Source: a virus. Taken from it: a stretch of DNA of 64,000 nucleotides. The stretch is taken from the UHGV virus genome UHGV-0038498; one strand, written 5' to 3'. Below are positions 4,708 through 52,000 of this stretch, piece by piece (within the stretch, counting starts at the first letter, position 1; every line of letters starts with the position of its first letter). The notes under the pieces are model-generated. The model searched no databases. It was not told the DNA's origin and saw only the letters and a list, made by a program, of their open reading frames with translations. A program made the position numbers and the translations under genes.

Positions 4708-4959
4708 ATGGAAACTTTAGTAGCAGGTTCAATTTTTATGGTTTTAGTTTCAGGCGTGTTGGCTATCATTATATACATGCTTCCGTGGTTCATCGCCTTG
4801 ATGCGTGGGTCAAAATCGACAGTAGGAATCTTTTTCACATCTTTACTGTTTAATTGGTCAATTATTGGTTGGTTTATTACATTTATTTGGTCAATTGCGG
4901 GTGAAACTAAAAAATCTGCACAACCGAATCAAGTAATTATCATCAGAGAGAAGGAATGA
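4708..4959 (+). CDS. imm: Superinfection immunity protein Imm
   Basis: 83 aa membrane protein METLVAGSIFMVLVSGVLAIIIYMLPWFIALMRGSKS...; T4 Imm length and sequence. Confidence 0.9.
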   Translation: METLVAGSIFMVLVSGVLAIIIYMLPWFIALMRGSKSTVGIFFTSLLFNWSIIGWFITFIWSIAGETKKSAQPNQVIIIREKE

Positions 4960-5105
4960 AAAGCAAAATTTTAGCAGTATTGCTTTTAATCTTGATGATT
5001 ATAATAAGTATATACTATAGCGTAACGGTTCCTTGTATGATTCCGACACTTATTATAGGTTGGGGTTTATTACTGTTACAAGTTAAATATGAATGTATCA
5101 ATTGA
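4956..5105 (+). CDS. Hypothetical small membrane protein (49 aa)
   Basis: ATG overlaps imm stop (ATGA); translation MKSKILAVLLLILMIIISIYYSVTVPCMIPTLIIGWGLLLLQVKYECIN; not in ORF track (under 60 aa). Confidence 0.4.
   Translation: MKSKILAVLLLILMIIISIYYSVTVPCMIPTLIIGWGLLLLQVKYECIN
4981..5005 (+). promoter_or_regulatory. Candidate MotA-dependent middle promoter for gene 42 (MotA box TGCTT 4981-4985, -10 TATAAT 5000-5005)
   Basis: TGCTT box 19 nt upstream of a TATAAT hexamer, the spacing expected for T4 middle promoters; lies inside the small ORF. Confidence 0.3.
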
Positions 5106-29131: not shown

Positions 29132-30070
29132 ATGTACAATATTAAATGTCTGACCAAAAACGAACAAGCTGAAATTGTCAAACTGTATTCAAGCGGTAAT
29201 TACACCCAACAGGAATTGGCTGATTGGCAAGGTGTATCGGTTGACACAATCCGTCGTGTTTTGAAAAATGCTGAAGAAGCTGAGCGCTCCAAAGTTACCA
29301 TTAGCGGTGACATTACGGTTAAAGTTAATAGCGATACAGCTATCGCTCCAGTTGCTAAATCTGACATTATTTGGAATGCATCTAAAAAATTCATTTCAAT
29401 TACTGTTGACGGTGTAACTTATAACGCAACTCCTAATACTCATTCAAACTTCCAGGAAATTCTTAATCTGCTTGTTGCAGATAAATTGGAAGAAGCGGCA
29501 CAAAAAATTAACGTTCGTCGCGCTGTTGAAAAATATATTTCTGGTGATGTTCGAATTGAAGGCGGAAGCTTGTTCTATCAAAATATTGAATTGCGGTCTG
29601 GTTTAGTTGATCGTATTCTCGATTCGATGGAAAAAGGCGAAAACTTTGAATTTTATTTTCCGTTCTTGGAAAATTTGTTGGAAAACCCGAGCCAAAAGGC
29701 GGTATCTCGACTCTTTGATTTCTTGGTAGCAAACGATATTGAAATTACGGAAGACGGCTACTTCTATGCTTGGAAAGTAGTTCGCAGTAATTACTTTGAC
29801 TGTCATTCAAATACTTTTGATAACAGTCCCGGTAAAGTAGTTAAAATGCCACGTACTCGTGTGAATGACGATGATACACAAACTTGTTCTCGTGGTCTGC
29901 ATGTGTGTTCTAAATCTTATATTCGTCACTTTGGTAGTTCAACCAGCCGAGTTGTAAAAGTTAAAGTGCATCCGCGTGATGTAGTATCAATTCCGATTGA
30001 TTACAACGATGCTAAAATGCGTACCTGCCAATATGAAGTAGTTGAAGACGTTACTGAACAATTTAAATAA
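29132..30070 (+). CDS. rIIB: rIIB protein
   Basis: 312 aa MYNIKCLTKNEQAEIVKLYSSGNYTQQELADWQGVSVDTIRRVLKNAEE...; T4 rIIB length and sequence. Confidence 0.93.
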   Translation: MYNIKCLTKNEQAEIVKLYSSGNYTQQELADWQGVSVDTIRRVLKNAEEAERSKVTISGDITVKVNSDTAIAPVAKSDIIWNASKKFISITVDGVTYNATPNTHSNFQEILNLLVADKLEEAAQKINVRRAVEKYISGDVRIEGGSLFYQNIELRSGLVDRILDSMEKGENFEFYFPFLENLLENPSQKAVSRLFDFLVANDIEITEDGYFYAWKVVRSNYFDCHSNTFDNSPGKVVKMPRTRVNDDDTQTCSRGLHVCSKSYIRHFGSSTSRVVKVKVHPRDVVSIPIDYNDAKMRTCQYEVVEDVTEQFK

Positions 30071-30379: not shown

Positions 30380-30937
30380 ATGCAGAAAACGAATCCGGGT
30401 TTACAGAGACTATTTCACATTCCGGCATTTACCATGTCGAACAGTGACTTGACTAGTGAAATGAAGGTCAAAATTGCTGATACAGCAAGATACTCTTTAA
30501 AACAAAACCCGAACCAGGATAAAGCAGAAGTTATCGAAAGATGCCGTATCGCTGTGTACGCAGAATTTTTTGTAGCAGATTGGTTGAGCGGGTATGTTAA
30601 CAAAGGCCAAGAGGATGTTAATGATCCGTATACATACGCATGGGATGTATTGGCGCATCCAAGATACTGCGGGCTTCGTGTAGAAGTTAAGACACATCAA
30701 ACTGACTCACGTTGGATTTCTGTAACAACAGGATGCAGCGGAGAGTATCCATATGGTTCTGGAATAAATCTAGGGCCCATTCTGAATCATCAGGTCGCTG
30801 ACTGTATAATTATATTCAACACTAAAGAAATTCATCCAGGTGTCATCCAGTACACTCCGAAGTTCATCGGTGATAGAGAAGACCTTCGTAAGGTTGTAAG
30901 AAAAAGCAACTACAACGGATGGTATCTTTCCATTTAA
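30380..30937 (+). CDS. denB: Endonuclease IV DenB (cytosine-DNA specific)
   Basis: 185 aa ORF at the T4 denB position next to rIIB; length matches T4 DenB. Confidence 0.6.
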   Translation: MQKTNPGLQRLFHIPAFTMSNSDLTSEMKVKIADTARYSLKQNPNQDKAEVIERCRIAVYAEFFVADWLSGYVNKGQEDVNDPYTYAWDVLAHPRYCGLRVEVKTHQTDSRWISVTTGCSGEYPYGSGINLGPILNHQVADCIIIFNTKEIHPGVIQYTPKFIGDREDLRKVVRKSNYNGWYLSI

Positions 30938-30949
30938 AAATTTTCACAA

Positions 30950-30985
30950 AACAGTTTACATACCACAAGGACTGTGGTACTATAC
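30950..30985 (+). promoter_or_regulatory. Early promoter (-35 GTTTAC 30954-30959, -10 TACTAT 30978-30983)
   Basis: GTTTAC-N18-TACTAT; member of the repeated promoter-leader cassette. Confidence 0.55.
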
Positions 30986-31010
30986 AACTATCAGCTACGG
31001 AGGAGTAAAA

Positions 31011-31274
31011 ATGAAATTTAAATTTTATTACGCTAAACATAAAATAACTGATGAGTTTGTGTCAGTTGAATATTCTAGCGATGATGAAGGTATGATTTAT
31101 ACTCGCTTGGGGCTATCGCACTGGGAGTCTGATACGCCTTATTTTTCAACTCCCGAAGAAATTACACGCTTAGTTAATGGTCATATGAATGACCACTGGT
31201 GTGTAATTCTTTCAGATAGTCTTAAAGCGGCTATTAATAGTAATGAAATGAAAATCGCTGAGATTGAACTATGA
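31011..31274 (+). CDS. Hypothetical protein
   Basis: 87 aa ORF after ACGGAGGAGTAAAA. Confidence 0.5.
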   Translation: MKFKFYYAKHKITDEFVSVEYSSDDEGMIYTRLGLSHWESDTPYFSTPEEITRLVNGHMNDHWCVILSDSLKAAINSNEMKIAEIEL

Positions 31275-31357
31275 GTTCATTGTGGTGGTGTTTTATTTGG
31301 TTAATTAGTATTCCATTAATTTGTTTAACATTTACTTTTGTGATGAGGTTATTATGA
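31271..31357 (+). CDS. Hypothetical hydrophobic microprotein (28 aa)
   Basis: MSSLWWCFIWLISIPLICLTFTFVMRLL; ATGA overlap with upstream stop; below ORF-track size cutoff. Confidence 0.35.
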   Translation: MSSLWWCFIWLISIPLICLTFTFVMRLL

Positions 31358-31452
31358 AAATTTTGAATTCTGTGCTTATTGCTTGTGCGTGGTGGGTTGC
31401 GCAAGTTTCAGCGGTAGTAGTTGGTATTCACATTTATTACGAATATTTTTAA
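31354..31452 (+). CDS. Hypothetical hydrophobic microprotein (32 aa)
   Basis: MKILNSVLIACAWWVAQVSAVVVGIHIYYEYF; start overlaps previous stop. Confidence 0.35.
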   Translation: MKILNSVLIACAWWVAQVSAVVVGIHIYYEYF

Positions 31453-31454
31453 AA

Positions 31455-31492
31455 AAAGTTGTTTACAAGACTGTTCCTCTGTGGTATTATTA
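31455..31492 (+). promoter_or_regulatory. Early promoter (-35 GTTTAC 31461-31466, -10 TATTAT 31485-31490)
   Basis: GTTTAC-N18-TATTAT. Confidence 0.5.
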
Positions 31493-31518
31493 TCCTATCA
31501 ACTACGGAGGAACAGAAA

Positions 31519-31632
31519 ATGAAAAAGATTGTTAAAGCTATATGGAATGTAGTTATAATACTAATAGTTTTGAGTATATTCCCAATCGTTTTAATGATTG
31601 ATGTATTAAACGCTTACTTTGGATTTATGTGA
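31519..31632 (+). CDS. Hypothetical hydrophobic microprotein (37 aa)
   Basis: MKKIVKAIWNVVIILIVLSIFPIVLMIDVLNAYFGFM; SD ACGGAGGA. Confidence 0.4.
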   Translation: MKKIVKAIWNVVIILIVLSIFPIVLMIDVLNAYFGFM

Positions 31633-31639
31633 GGAAAAT

Positions 31640-31837
31640 ATGAAGCGTAAACGCAGTGCTTTTACATTTATTGAATGGTTTTTCGATAATATTTTTCCGG
31701 CTTTATTCATTTTCATGCTGATTTTTGCCTTAGGTTCAGTTGTAGTTGGAATTTATTTGATGGCAGTTGTCGGAATGGACATTCATCAAAATGGTTTAAA
31801 ATCTGTGGTTGAAACAATTTGGAATGGTGTAAAATGA
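31640..31837 (+). CDS. Hypothetical membrane protein (65 aa)
   Basis: ATG 31640 after GTGAGGAAAATA; MKRKRSAFTFIEWFFDNIFPALFIFMLIFALGSVVVGIYLMAVVGMDIHQ... Confidence 0.45.
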   Translation: MKRKRSAFTFIEWFFDNIFPALFIFMLIFALGSVVVGIYLMAVVGMDIHQNGLKSVVETIWNGVK

Positions 31838-31944
31838 TAAATTTGCTGAGTGGTTGGTTTTATATTCTCATGTTTTACGTTGGTGCAAATTTTCCGTATT
31901 GGATGGGATGGTCAACAACTGCATTTGGATTTTATACTCCCTGA
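31834..31944 (+). CDS. Hypothetical hydrophobic microprotein (36 aa)
   Basis: MINLLSGWFYILMFYVGANFPYWMGWSTTAFGFYTP; ATGA overlap. Confidence 0.35.
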   Translation: MINLLSGWFYILMFYVGANFPYWMGWSTTAFGFYTP

Positions 31945-31952
31945 GGTGAATT

Positions 31953-32168
31953 ATGAAAATTTTTAAAGATGTAAAAGTTGGCGAAATTTTTTGCTTAGAT
32001 AGTGGTGATCAGTTAATTCGTATTTCACCTCTTAAGAGCACTAGCGAGAAAATGACAGTTAATGCTACTTTAGCAAACAACAGCAATGAACGTTTCTGTA
32101 TTGAAAATGATACTGAAACTTATACCGTAGAAGAGTTTTGGGAATTGAGCGTCGACTGCGACGATTAA
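31953..32168 (+). CDS. Hypothetical protein
   Basis: 71 aa ORF with GAGGTGAATT upstream. Confidence 0.45.
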   Translation: MKIFKDVKVGEIFCLDSGDQLIRISPLKSTSEKMTVNATLANNSNERFCIENDTETYTVEEFWELSVDCDD

Positions 32169-32228
32169 TTTATCGGGCCGTATGTATTCATGCGGCCTTG
32201 GAGTAGAAAATAATTAGAGGAAATTAAC

Positions 32229-32684
32229 ATGAAATATATGACTGTTACTGATTTGAATAATGCAGGCGCAACTGTTATTGGTACAATCAAGGGCGGTGAA
32301 TGGGTTTTTGGAACTCCGCATAAAGACATTTTGTCTAACCCTGGATTTTACTTTTTAGTGAGCAAATTTGGTGGTCCATTTGATAGTCCGTGTGTATCTG
32401 CACGATTTTATGTAGGTAATCAGCGTTCTAAGCAAGGATTCAGTGCAGTTCTAAGTCATATTCGTCAGCGTCGGTCTCAGCTTGCGCGTACTATTGCAAA
32501 TAACAATGTTCCATACACAGTATTTTATCTTCCTGCTTCTAAGATGAAACCTCTGACGACGGGATTTGGAAAAGGTCAGTTAGCTTTAGCGTTTACTCGT
32601 AATCATCATTCTGAGTATCAAACACTTGAAGAAATGAACCGTATGTTGGCTGATAACTTTAAATTTGTTTTGCAGGCATATTAA
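32229..32684 (+). CDS. ndd: Nucleoid disruption protein Ndd
   Basis: 151 aa [68 protein letters not shown]...; T4 Ndd. Confidence 0.9.
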
Positions 32685-32764
32685 TGAGTAATTTCCATAA
32701 CGAACATGTGATGCAGTTCTATCGTAACAATCTTAAAACCAAAGGCGTCTTCGGACGCCAGTGA
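32684..32764 (+). CDS. stp: Stp peptide (26 aa; inhibitor of type I restriction that activates the PrrC anticodon nuclease)
   Basis: [26 protein letters not shown]; start overlaps ndd stop (TAATG); matches the T4 Stp sequence I recall. Confidence 0.78.
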
Positions 32765-32771
32765 GGAAAAT

Positions 32772-32930
32772 ATGAATATCGCAAAATTATTAGGAGTTAT
32801 TTCATTTGTTTGTTGGATAGTAGCATGTGTTTTAACTATCTGTATCGATGCTAGCAGTGTGTTTTCACAAGCTTTAGCCCAGGGTATGTGTGCATATTTA
32901 ACATTTGTGTTGTTATCTACTAATGATTAA
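32772..32930 (+). CDS. Small membrane protein (52 aa), possibly the ac (acridine sensitivity) homologue
   Basis: MNIAKLLGVISFVCWIVACVLTICIDASSVFSQALAQGMCAYLTFVLLSTND; SD GTGAGGAAAATA. Confidence 0.45.
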   Translation: MNIAKLLGVISFVCWIVACVLTICIDASSVFSQALAQGMCAYLTFVLLSTND

Positions 32931-33063
32931 GAAAATCTTGGGCTATTCATTAGCCCTTGCTACTTTATTGGTAGCACTATATTATGGAGTAATGTTCGGA
33001 TTAATTCAAGTCGTGCTTTTCATTTCTGATGTTATTATGGCACTACATTCACTAGTATGGTAA
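32923..33063 (+). CDS. Hypothetical hydrophobic microprotein (46 aa)
   Basis: MIKKILGYSLALATLLVALYYGVMFGLIQVVLFISDVIMALHSLVW; overlaps previous ORF end. Confidence 0.35.
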   Translation: MIKKILGYSLALATLLVALYYGVMFGLIQVVLFISDVIMALHSLVW

Positions 33064-33067
33064 ATTT

Positions 33068-34396
33068 ATGCAACTGAATAATCGCGATTTAAAAAGTATC
33101 ATTGATAATGAAGCATTGGCTTATGCTATGTACACGGTTGAAAATCGTGCTATCCCAAATATGATTGATGGATTTAAGCCAGTTCAACGATTTGTTATTG
33201 CTCGAGCTCTTGATTTGGCACGAGGAAATAAAGATAAGTTTCACAAACTCGCTTCTATTGCAGGCGGTGTAGCAGACCTTGGATATCATCATGGTGAAAA
33301 CTCTGCACAAGACGCGGGTGCTTTGATGGCTAACACTTGGAATAATAACTTTCCTTTGTTAGATGGTCAAGGAAATTTTGGTTCTCGTACCGTTCAAAAA
33401 GCAGCGGCAAGTCGTTATATTTTTGCTCGTGTAAGTAAAAATTTCTATAACGTATATAAAGATACTGAATATGCTCCGGTACATCAAGATAAAGAACACA
33501 TTCCGCCTGCTTTCTATTTGCCTATTATTCCTACTGTTCTTCTTAACGGTGTTTCCGGTATTGCAACTGGTTATGCAACTTACATTCTTCCTCATAGTGT
33601 TTCTTCTGTCAAGAAAGCTGTACTGCAAGCTCTTCAAGGAAAGAAAGTAACTAAACCGAAGGTAGAATTCCCAGAATTTCGCGGTGAAGTCGTTGAAATT
33701 GACGGTCAATATGAAATTCGTGGAACGTACAAGTTTACTTCACGAACTCAAATGAATATCACTGAGATTCCATATAAGTATGATCGTGAAACTTATGTGA
33801 GTAAAATCTTAGACCCGCTTGAAGATAAAGGCTTCATTACGTGGGATGATGCTTGTGGTGAGCATGGTTTTGGCTTTAAAGTTAAATTCCGTAAAGAATA
33901 TTCTTTGAGCGATAACGAAGAAGAACGCCATGCAAAAATTATGAAAGACTTCGGGTTGATTGAGCGTCGTTCCCAGAATATTACTGTTATTAATGAGAAA
34001 GGAAAGCTGCAAGTTTACGATAACGTAGTTGATTTAATCAAAGACTTCGTTGAAGTTCGTAAAACTTATGTCCAAAAACGAATTGATAACAAAATCAAAG
34101 AAACTGAATCGGCATTTCGTTTAGCCTTTGCCAAGGCGCATTTCATTAAGAAAGTAATTTCAGGTGAAATTGTTGTACAAGGTAAAACTCGTAAAGAACT
34201 GACCGAAGAACTTTCTAAAATTGATATGTATTCTTCTTATGTTGATAAACTAGTTGGAATGAACATTTTTCATATGACTTCCGACGAAGCAAAGAAACTT
34301 GCTGAAGAAGCTAAAGCTAAAAAAGAAGAAAACGAATATTGGAAAACTACTGATGTAGTTACCGAATACACTAAAGATTTAGAGGAAATCAAATGA
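33068..34396 (+). CDS. 52: DNA topoisomerase II medium (GyrA-like, DNA breakage-reunion) subunit gp52
   Basis: 442 aa MQLNNRDLKSIIDNEALAYAMYTVENRAIPNMIDGFKPVQRFVIARALD...; T4 gp52 length and sequence. Confidence 0.92.
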   Translation: MQLNNRDLKSIIDNEALAYAMYTVENRAIPNMIDGFKPVQRFVIARALDLARGNKDKFHKLASIAGGVADLGYHHGENSAQDAGALMANTWNNNFPLLDGQGNFGSRTVQKAAASRYIFARVSKNFYNVYKDTEYAPVHQDKEHIPPAFYLPIIPTVLLNGVSGIATGYATYILPHSVSSVKKAVLQALQGKKVTKPKVEFPEFRGEVVEIDGQYEIRGTYKFTSRTQMNITEIPYKYDRETYVSKILDPLEDKGFITWDDACGEHGFGFKVKFRKEYSLSDNEEERHAKIMKDFGLIERRSQNITVINEKGKLQVYDNVVDLIKDFVEVRKTYVQKRIDNKIKETESAFRLAFAKAHFIKKVISGEIVVQGKTRKELTEELSKIDMYSSYVDKLVGMNIFHMTSDEAKKLAEEAKAKKEENEYWKTTDVVTEYTKDLEEIK

Positions 34397-34542
34397 GTCC
34401 ATTCATTGGTATTACAAGCGCTGCATTAGTATCCGGTGGCATTTTACTGGCGGGTTTAGGTGTTGTTCCTGCCGTAGCAGGAGGTCTTCTTGCGTTCGGA
34501 ATTCAACGTGTTATCATGACAGTTATCACAGTCATGCAGTAA
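34393..34542 (+). CDS. Hypothetical glycine-zipper membrane microprotein (49 aa)
   Basis: MSPFIGITSAALVSGGILLAGLGVVPAVAGGLLAFGIQRVIMTVITVMQ; ATGA overlap with gene 52 stop. Confidence 0.4.
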   Translation: MSPFIGITSAALVSGGILLAGLGVVPAVAGGLLAFGIQRVIMTVITVMQ

Positions 34543-34547
34543 TTTTA

Positions 34548-34574
34548 GGGAGAGCCGAGGCTCTCCCTTTTTTA
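34548..34574 (+). terminator. Rho-independent terminator (GGGAGAGCC-GA-GGCTCTCCC + TTTTTTA)
   Basis: 9 bp perfect stem followed by T-run. Confidence 0.72.
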
Positions 34575-35315: not shown

Positions 35316-35645
35316 ATGAACAAGTTAGAAATTGTTAATGAACTTCGTCGTTGTGCAGAACCCACTCAAGAGGGGTGGGACATCTGGTACCATGGAGCTT
35401 ATCTTGGAACTATCGTAAAGATTAAGACTGGTAAATACATGATTATTCGTGAAAGTAAAGATGCTCCAGTAGGTATTCGCAATAATTTTATGGCGGCGAT
35501 AAGTTCCTTTACGGATTCAGCTTATGAAATTTACCTTGCTGATTATAAAGAATTCCAGGAATCTCAACCAGTTATTCGCTCAATTGGTGTTAACAAAGCT
35601 CAACAGAAAACTTTGTGGCAGCGTATTAAAGGATGGTTTAAATGA
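35316..35645 (+). CDS. Hypothetical protein (motA.1 position)
   Basis: 109 aa ORF. Confidence 0.5.
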
Positions 35646-51963: not shown

Positions 51964-52000
51964 AACGGTTTACATACCACAAGGACTGTGGTACTATACA
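51964..52000 (+). promoter_or_regulatory. Early promoter (-35 GTTTAC 51968-51973, -10 TACTAT 51992-51997)
   Basis: GTTTAC-N18-TACTAT; member of the repeated cassette. Confidence 0.55.

Follow-up and report, generated by a model that had tools for sequence, protein, structure and literature searches.

The window examined here is a whole stretch of 64,000 nucleotides of the virus genome UHGV-0038498, a T4-type phage genome segment of Tequatrovirus, and the subject of the analysis is an array of five small hydrophobic open reading frames (ORFs) located between its genes denB and ndd. Comparison of the sequences indicated that all five ORFs are genuine protein-coding genes, and that the C-terminal 22 residues of one product, the 37-amino acid (aa) protein Ndd.4, resemble a conserved transmembrane (TM) segment of gp29, the tape-measure protein with which the phage injects its DNA, which is a new point. 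Taken as a whole, the data make it somewhat probable that the array encodes early accessory membrane microproteins, with Ndd.4 interfering with gp29 at the DNA-entry channel. An earlier note, made from the letters alone, had described the five as an array of hydrophobic microprotein genes, and each of them was recovered at exactly the coordinates and lengths that it listed:

31271..31357, + strand: ndd.6 homolog, 28 aa, single predicted TM helix, phrog_8851
31354..31452, + strand: ndd.5 homolog, 32 aa, hydrophobic, phrog_5011
31519..31632, + strand: ndd.4 homolog, 37 aa, predicted TM helix, PHROG 3098
31640..31837, + strand: ndd.3+ndd.2a homolog (one gene), 65 aa, Pfam DUF7248 (PF23906), PHROG 2401
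31834..31944, + strand: ndd.2 homolog, 36 aa, aromatic-rich, uncharged, phrog_4135

These ORFs are already known, being long-annotated T4 genes in existing families. They are named ndd.6, ndd.5, ndd.4, ndd.3/ndd.2a and ndd.2 in the annotated T4 and ime09 records, the T4 products are 91–100% identical to the window ORFs over their full length (tblastn), and all five matched PHROG families, with E=4e-17 to 3e-30. A megablast search with positions 30900–33100 matched 568 phage records, 490 of which cover at least 80% of the query. The Pfam scan placed only the 65-aa protein in a family, leaving the other four peptides without one, and no Pfam or PHROG match was to any family of assigned function, holins and small toxins included. 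As gene finding, the analysis adds nothing, since the ORFs have long been annotated and are covered by two genome-wide T4 screens. What the coding evidence does settle is the inconsistent annotation across hundreds of T4-like genomes; ndd.6, for example, is annotated in only 3 of 11 relatives' records, in agreement with the earlier note's remark that most of these ORFs fall below the usual calling cut-offs.

Coding evidence, gene packing and dispensability

The denB–ndd interval of the window was aligned with those of 18 Tequatrovirus genomes (19 in total), and an excess of synonymous changes was observed in ndd.5 (10 synonymous and 3 non-synonymous sites; 2, 0 and 11 at the first, second and third codon positions; p=3e-5), ndd.3/2a (22 and 10; 7, 2 and 23; p=6e-9) and ndd.2 (13 and 13; 7, 4 and 15; p=5e-4), with the excess being weaker or absent in the alternative frames of these three genes. 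The counts for ndd.6 (4 and 7; 6, 1 and 4) and ndd.4 (2 and 4; 3, 1 and 2) were not significant within Tequatrovirus alone, where both frames are undecided because there are too few changes. Both were confirmed in other clades, ndd.4 in a second clade (22 and 17; 8, 5 and 26; p=9e-7) and ndd.6 in the RB69ORF270c-type clade (14 and 13; 7, 2 and 18; p=7e-5). The frames of ndd.6, ndd.5, ndd.4, the 65-aa gene and ndd.2 are intact in 18, 19, 19, 17 and 19 of the 19 genomes, respectively.

The array was also traced beyond the genus in IMG/VR, where 36 loci with an Ndd 46–95% identical to that of the window were obtained. In the 29 most distant loci (46–66%), the denB–ndd interval again carries small hydrophobic ORFs, in the same order and belonging to four families (ndd.6, ndd.4, ndd.2a and ndd.2-like), and DNA-level alignment to other genera is restricted to the early promoter and the 5′ end of ndd.4 (query positions 231–352). 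Conservation in related phages, which the earlier note had proposed as a check, therefore extends from the close genomes to four families under purifying selection across genera. Individual array members are present in some phages and absent from others in a mosaic fashion, and this speaks against an obligate complex of all five.

That some, or even all, of the ORFs arose as chance frames in an AT-rich spacer whose T-rich codons mimic hydrophobic peptides is highly improbable and largely refuted. Hydrophobic small ORFs do occur by chance, 14 of them being counted on the window's minus strand, and the missing synonymous excess of ndd.6 and ndd.4 within Tequatrovirus would fit this explanation. 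However, third-position bias and synonymous excess were found in the stated frames, with ndd.6 and ndd.4 being confirmed in other clades, and the protein families persist in genera whose DNA can no longer be aligned. In addition, the five ORFs occupy 89% of the 674 nt of the array, while 2000 shuffles contained an average of 0.88 ORFs and 15% coverage; five or more ORFs were rarely reached by the shuffles (P=0.0005), and the observed coverage was reached by none of the 2000.

The alignment also bears on the T4 reference. In NC_000866/AF158101, the 65-aa ORF reads ATGAA-CGT with one G missing. This single omission accounts for two annotated genes, 'ndd.3', whose 26 aa result from the frameshift, and 'ndd.2a', whose 40 aa are the C-terminal part. 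The G is present in HM137666, KJ477684 and OZ209023, three independently sequenced T4 genomes with a 65-aa protein identical to that of the window, and the listing of ndd.3 as 82 nt in the HIDEN-SEQ annotation fits an artefact (10.1101/2025.11.20.689424). On this comparison of records, the T4 'ndd.3'/'ndd.2a' split is the artefact of one missing base, a new point that corrects the T4 reference to a single 65-aa DUF7248 gene.

All five ORFs start with ATG on the + strand, and they are packed for translational coupling in two units with early-promoter-like sites upstream. ATGA start/stop overlaps were observed at the ndd.6/ndd.5 and 65-aa gene/ndd.2 junctions, and also between ndd.6 and the preceding hydrophilic ORF, orfX. 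Shine-Dalgarno sequences (GAGG or GGAGG) lie upstream of ndd.5, ndd.4 and the 65-aa gene, so the overlaps and good ribosome-binding sites that had been reported hold for these genes, but the sites ahead of ndd.6 and ndd.2 are weak. Six sites in the window fit GTTTAC-N12-16-TGGTAYTAT, a pattern of the T4 early-promoter type; every one lies on the + strand, and the expected number is zero. Two of these sites, supported by the pattern and a sigma-70 scan, lie directly upstream of orfX and of ndd.4:

30954..30983, + strand: T4-type early promoter-like site, upstream of orfX, ndd.6 and ndd.5
31461..31490, + strand: T4-type early promoter-like site, upstream of ndd.4

The sequence at 30954–30983 is repeated at 51968–51997, the two being identical 30-nt early-promoter sequences on the same strand, 21 kb apart. 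Such promoter repeats explain why BLAST matches a genome at several places, and deletions or duplications could arise through them.

The best 19-residue Kyte-Doolittle windows of the products, from ndd.6 to ndd.2 in order, are 2.33, 2.17, 3.06, 2.71 and 1.29, the usual threshold for a TM call being 1.6. The earlier description of the peptides as very hydrophobic single TM helices is therefore right for four of them (2.17–3.06), which contain clear TM helices, but not for the ndd.2 product, which falls under the threshold, has no charged residue and is rich in aromatic residues.

In a T4 time-course, the RNAs of ndd.2 to ndd.6 fall into the 'early' class (Wolfram-Schauerte et al., PMC9697503, supplement 4). 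All five genes were scored 'Not Fit' by CRISPRi-ART (PMC11879866 supplement) and 'Non-essential' by HIDEN-SEQ, insertions being recovered at almost all sites (10.1101/2025.11.20.689424 supplement). In the same screen imm, sp and ac are likewise 'Non-essential', while gene 29 is essential (10.1101/2025.11.20.689424); as imm and sp share this class, a missing fitness effect is what an exclusion gene would show. The saΔ9 deletion, which removes 52.1, ac, stp, ndd, ndd.1–ndd.6 and denB, still gives a phage yield of 50% of the wild type (PMC6071114), and a viable T4 mutant record without ndd.6 to ndd.4 was found. The genes ndd.2–ndd.6 are thus accessory and dispensable on laboratory E. coli. Literature searches returned nothing specific on these genes in main texts, only listings in the supplements of genome-wide studies, and no T4 ribosome-profiling study was found in the literature.

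Resemblance of Ndd.4 to gp29

The Ndd.4 protein (PHROG 3098, E=4e-21) has a basic N-terminus (KK..K), a TM helix, an invariant Asp28 and an aromatic C-terminus, and the ndd.4-like peptides of distant genera follow the pattern KK.LKAIWN-TM-D-...F.YFF. When the single sequence was searched against 1.84 billion representatives, only six clusters were obtained, all from close relatives. The family profile searched against all PDB sequences returned a single match at E<=10, namely residues 239–253 of the gp29 homolog 9f4b_BH (E=0.68), and T4 gp29 has the same motif at 240–258, within the most conserved part of the protein.

Profile–profile alignment (hhalign) of the Ndd.4 family with this gp29 segment gave a probability of 92–93%, P=2.5e-7 to 4.7e-7 and a score of 30.9, compared with a mean of 8.1 (sd 1.6, maximum 12.8) for 300 column-shuffled controls, 11.6 for the unrelated DUF7248 profile and 8.6 for the reversed segment. 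Against the full-length gp29 profile, columns 16–37 of Ndd.4 were placed on gp29 237–258 with P=3e-6. Among 4351 six-frame ORFs of T4T, Ndd.4 and gp29 were reciprocal best non-self matches (E=0.063 and E=0.024; next 0.95). The shared pattern is a hydrophobic run followed by (I)D-(L/V)(L/I)-x-(I/V)-(H/Y)F-x-Y-(W/F), with the Asp being invariant in both families.

The likeness was further assessed by pairing Ndd.4 and gp29 from the same contigs and comparing them with shuffled pairings. With eight clade representatives, 54 same-phage identities were counted against 45.6±2.7 in the shuffled pairings (P=0.0014), and with 11 representatives the same-phage excess reached P=1e-4 by identity and 0.017 by BLOSUM62, the best same-phage pair being identical at 12 of 18 residues. 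The possibility that gene conversion took place recently between ndd.4 and gene 29 was ruled out, as the codons of the shared residues differ; the synonymous sites are scrambled, so the match has been kept at the protein level.

Comparable mimicry was not found for the neighbouring small membrane proteins ac, 52.1 and motA.1 among the six-frame T4 ORFs, where the best non-self matches of the other peptides fell in non-genic frames (E=0.04–0.8). Profiles of ndd.6, ndd.2a and ndd.2 were also compared with the gp29 profile, and nothing comparable was obtained.

Proposed decoy mechanism and competing explanations

The function of the gp29 segment is treated in a 2026 preprint (bioRxiv 10.64898/2026.03.06.709160). 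In that work, gp29 contains a TM segment (207–246) and a helical-bundle domain (273–518). The segment is reported to sit on a hydrophobic patch of the bundle, where gp48, the tube-tip protein, keeps it in place, and the authors propose that it enters the inner membrane and opens a conduit for DNA; Imm is reported to bind the bundle patch and to disturb the segment–bundle interaction. Ndd.4, mimicry and decoys are not mentioned there.

If the array works as early accessory membrane microproteins, each peptide would form a single helix in the host inner membrane, with Ndd.4, Ndd.2a and Ndd.5 being predicted N-in/C-out by the positive-inside rule. The five would act very early at this membrane, each on a separate target, because their presence and absence varies independently between phages. 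The basic N-terminus of Ndd.4 would give it the N-in/C-out orientation, and the gp29-like end would then be placed at the periplasmic face, where the incoming tape-measure protein arrives. Its C-terminus would copy the end of the gp29 TM segment and the junction that follows (about T4 237–258, with the invariant Asp), so that free, membrane-anchored Ndd.4, made within minutes of infection, might compete for the contacts of the gp29 segment. The most likely effect would be that channel formation by later phages is blocked, amounting to superinfection exclusion alongside Imm; alternatively, Ndd.4 might cap or seal the channel left by the parental phage. The more specific proposal that Ndd.4 is a self-mimic decoy that catches the bundle domain or the tube tip of later phages, and a third T4 exclusion factor co-evolving with gp29, is possible but doubtful on present evidence. 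It ties an orphan gene to the newly described mechanisms of T4 genome delivery and Imm exclusion and, if true, self-mimicry of the tape-measure TM segment would be a simple and evolvable means for phages to exclude relatives, as well as a peptide scaffold for blocking phage DNA entry.

Several points weigh against the reading of the array as early accessory membrane microproteins with Ndd.4 acting on gp29. Classical genetics assigns T4 exclusion to imm and sp. The match spans about 20 largely hydrophobic residues, its single-profile E-values are marginal (0.68 against PDB, 0.02–0.06 within T4), and the co-variation in the eight clades has P=0.07 when scored with BLOSUM62, with few independent clades available. 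Comparable mimicry by ndd.6, ndd.5, ndd.2a and ndd.2 was not found among the six-frame T4 ORFs. The products of ndd.2 to ndd.6 carry 'none' in the final column of the expression study, which we read as unclassified at the protein level (PMC9697503), and phosphatidylglycerol stimulation is lost in saΔ9, from which another role would follow for some gene of the region (PMC6071114).

The nearest alternative, which we consider rather unlikely, takes the Ndd.4–gp29 likeness as the result of old common ancestry or of a shared requirement, such as the same lipid or insertion route, with no interaction between the two proteins. The match is indeed short and hydrophobic, and the synonymous sites are saturated, so any ndd.4/gene 29 duplication would be ancient. 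However, independent drift after an old duplication would not favour same-phage over cross-phage likeness, and the positions at which the two proteins agree are those that are invariant within each family. The loss of phosphatidylglycerol stimulation leads to another alternative, in which the microproteins reprogram host phospholipid synthesis through inner-membrane enzymes of lipid synthesis or transport and thereby cause the T4-induced stimulation; we regard this as unlikely. With the saΔ9 deletion, infection no longer stimulates phospholipid synthesis, in particular that of phosphatidylglycerol (Kutter et al. 2018, PMC6071114), and with rIIΔDD2, a deletion that overlaps it, the stimulation specific to phosphatidylglycerol is lost (PMC6071114); the authors pointed out that several genes of the region are predicted membrane proteins and did not identify the responsible genes (PMC6071114). 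Yet the mapped region is 3.4 kb long and also holds denB, ndd, ac and 52.1, the stimulation is also lost in a dCTPase/endoIV/alc-deficient strain (PMC6071114), meaning that DenB or the DNA status may be responsible, and no sequence link to lipid enzymes was found with Pfam or with profile searches against PDB. The saΔ9 phosphatidylglycerol effect is the only published phenotype that could involve the products of ndd.6, ndd.5, the DUF7248 gene or ndd.2.

An explanation of equally low probability takes up the earlier note's suggestion on transporters, the divisome and secretion: the peptides would serve in host takeover by inhibiting or poisoning membrane machinery of the cell (efflux pumps, transporters, divisome/elongasome, secretion). 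A precedent stands in the cluster itself, where the 52-aa membrane protein Ac is annotated as the determinant of acridine sensitivity; Ac alters acridine uptake. Gp94 (Emp) of the T4-like phage AV110 is reported to bind MreB, MreC and MreD and to inhibit the growth of E. coli (bioRxiv 10.64898/2026.09.14.751387), and early expression would suit a takeover role. Against this, knock-down or disruption of the genes brings no fitness cost in CRISPRi-ART and HIDEN-SEQ, no homology to small toxins or regulators was detected in the PHROG, Pfam and PDB profile searches, and gene content differs among phages of the same hosts. A further alternative is counter-defence against membrane-acting abortive infection or prophage exclusion, comparable to rIIA/rIIB against RexAB and needed only on particular natural hosts; we hold this to be the least likely of the functional alternatives. 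The genes are non-essential on K-12, host-conflict genes are abundant nearby (rIIB, denB, ndd, stp and ac), and the gene content is mosaic and differs by clade, as is usual in arms-race loci. However, none of the five genes changed significantly in one conditional-comparison table of the HIDEN-SEQ supplement (q=1.0), and the idea leaves the resemblance of Ndd.4 to gp29 unexplained.

Early accessory membrane microproteins, with Ndd.4 acting on gp29, is the reading retained here, at the strength given at the outset. The general idea of the earlier note, accessory membrane-acting microproteins that possibly confer exclusion, is reasonable, and for Ndd.4 it can now be given a specific form; the likeness to the gp29 segment lends the exclusion suggestion indirect support for this one member only.

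Companion microproteins, neighbouring genes and known systems

The ndd.6 product is 92% identical to T4 Ndd.6 (PHROG E=4e-17), and the motif WC(L/F)IW..(C/S)IP.IC is kept in the Ndd.6-like peptides of other genera. It is the least stable frame among the five: MZ234013 carries a 53-nt tandem duplication across the ndd.6/ndd.5 junction (aligned at about 31320–31360), and in another relative a 2-nt insertion (aligned at about 31345) lengthens ndd.6 to 83 aa. The ndd.5 product is 100% identical to T4 Ndd.5 and confined to Tequatrovirus. It contains a lipobox-like L-I-A-C at residues 8–11, preceded by a hydrophobic stretch of just 8 residues, and this motif may be the source of the 'outer membrane' label in the T4 annotation. 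The ndd.2 product (PHROG E=4e-23) has homologs in other genera with the conserved motif VG.N.PYW.G, and four relatives use an ATG located 3 nt downstream as the ndd.2 start.

The 65-aa protein matches Pfam PF23906 (DUF7248) over its full length with 71.9 bits against a cut-off of 27, and consists of a basic N-terminus, a long TM helix, a kink at Gly52 and a conserved C-terminal helix, GLKSVVE.IWNG. The ndd.2a-like proteins of distant genera have the same arrangement, with lengths of 62–71 aa, a basic N-terminus, a TM helix and Q..GLKSVVE.IWNG. The AF2 model (mean pLDDT 77, with confidence peaking at about residues 11–40) contains one helix at 5–51 and a second at 53–62, after the invariant Gly52. 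The conservation of DUF7248 is concentrated in the C-terminal helix, which is predicted to be periplasmic and is probably the working part of the protein. A word-indexed search with the 65-aa protein alone gave 8 clusters, while the DUF7248 profile search reached further, to 143 clusters, the named ones being from T4-like enterobacterial phages or contigs of about 160–175 kb. A type IV pilin-like reading, suggested by MKRKRSA|FTFIE and a weak match to PDB 8tob (E=0.22), was rejected, as the motif is absent in the other genera of the family.

Variants of this protein were also encountered. In the phage T2 record PV958097, a premature stop shortens the DUF7248 protein to 44 aa, and a cluster of 44-aa DUF7248 proteins also comes from phage ELT1, so the truncated allele circulates. 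The 62-aa gp120 of Shigella phage Sf25 is a natural in-frame fusion, in which the N-terminus and TM helix of Ndd.4 are joined to the C-terminal half of DUF7248. Its domain list names PF26889, presumably for the Ndd.4 part, a family that the Pfam scan of the window Ndd.4 did not return.

The order of genes on the + strand is rIIB (29132–30070), denB.1, denB (30380–30937), orfX, the five hydrophobic ORFs, ndd.1 and ndd (32229–32684), followed by stp, ac, 52.1, gene 52, motA.1 and motA. The denB–ndd interval thus holds the five-gene array as previously described, but it also contains two hydrophilic ORFs, orfX and ndd.1, at its ends. The three similar peptides that had been noted downstream were all present, and correspond to ac, 52.1 and motA.1. 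These neighbours are as follows:

31011..31274, + strand: orfX, 87-aa hydrophilic protein, phrog_2390; first gene of the unit, its stop overlapping the ndd.6 start (ATGA)
31953..32168, + strand: ndd.1 homolog, 71 aa, hydrophilic; last gene before ndd
32772..32930, + strand: ac, 52 aa, acridine resistance membrane protein
32923..33063, + strand: gene 52.1, 46-aa membrane protein, Pfam DUF7396
34393..34542, + strand: motA.1, 49-aa Gly/Ala-rich TM peptide, phrog_3487; a strong terminator hairpin follows at 34547–34568

Between denB and ndd.6, the place of orfX varies among phages as a cassette; it is occupied by the 87-aa gene (phrog_2390) in the window and most relatives, by a 68-aa gene in T2, RB32 and PP01, by both genes in tandem in ime09 and by none in T4. 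Substitution counts for orfX are unreliable, since some relatives have a different gene in that slot. A further small hydrophobic ORF with a ribosome-binding site lies at 4956–5105 on the + strand (49 aa, hydropathy window 2.84). Just 3′ of motA, at 35316–35645, a 109-aa ORF is identical to Arn.4 of T4T at 108 of 109 residues, while arn.4 is annotated as 68 aa only in the T4 reference; by its size and its position beside MotA, this ORF is probably a homolog of AV110 Gp94/Emp.

Compared with the T4 ndd cluster, the array occupies the same site between denB and ndd.1/ndd, and the lengths of ndd.6, ndd.5 and ndd.2 are the same; however, the window has the extra 87-aa gene ahead of ndd.6, and its ndd.4 encodes 37 aa, against 42 aa in the T4 reference annotation. 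The 65-aa protein is a typical member of Pfam DUF7248/PHROG 2401, a family without an assigned function. With small membrane regulators such as T4 Ac, the peptides share a length of 30–65 aa and a single TM helix, with no homology detected. The E. coli proteins AcrZ and MgrB are small single-TM regulators that bind larger membrane proteins, and by analogy such binding is likely to be the general mode of action of the five. Ndd.4 differs from gp29, a 590-aa essential virion protein, in being a free-standing early peptide of 37 aa with a basic N-terminus of its own, and the two share no identity at the DNA level. T4 Imm, which together with the HK97 gp15 type represents superinfection-exclusion proteins that act on the tape-measure protein, is a small, early, non-essential inner-membrane protein, as Ndd.4 is predicted to be, and Ndd.4 is proposed to act at the same gp29 step. 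No Ndd profile matched the imm ORF among the six-frame T4 ORFs, and Imm has 83 aa and several helices, whereas Ndd.4 has a single predicted helix. Since Ndd.4 resembles the TM segment of the target itself, it would be a decoy rather than a binder of the immunity-protein type.

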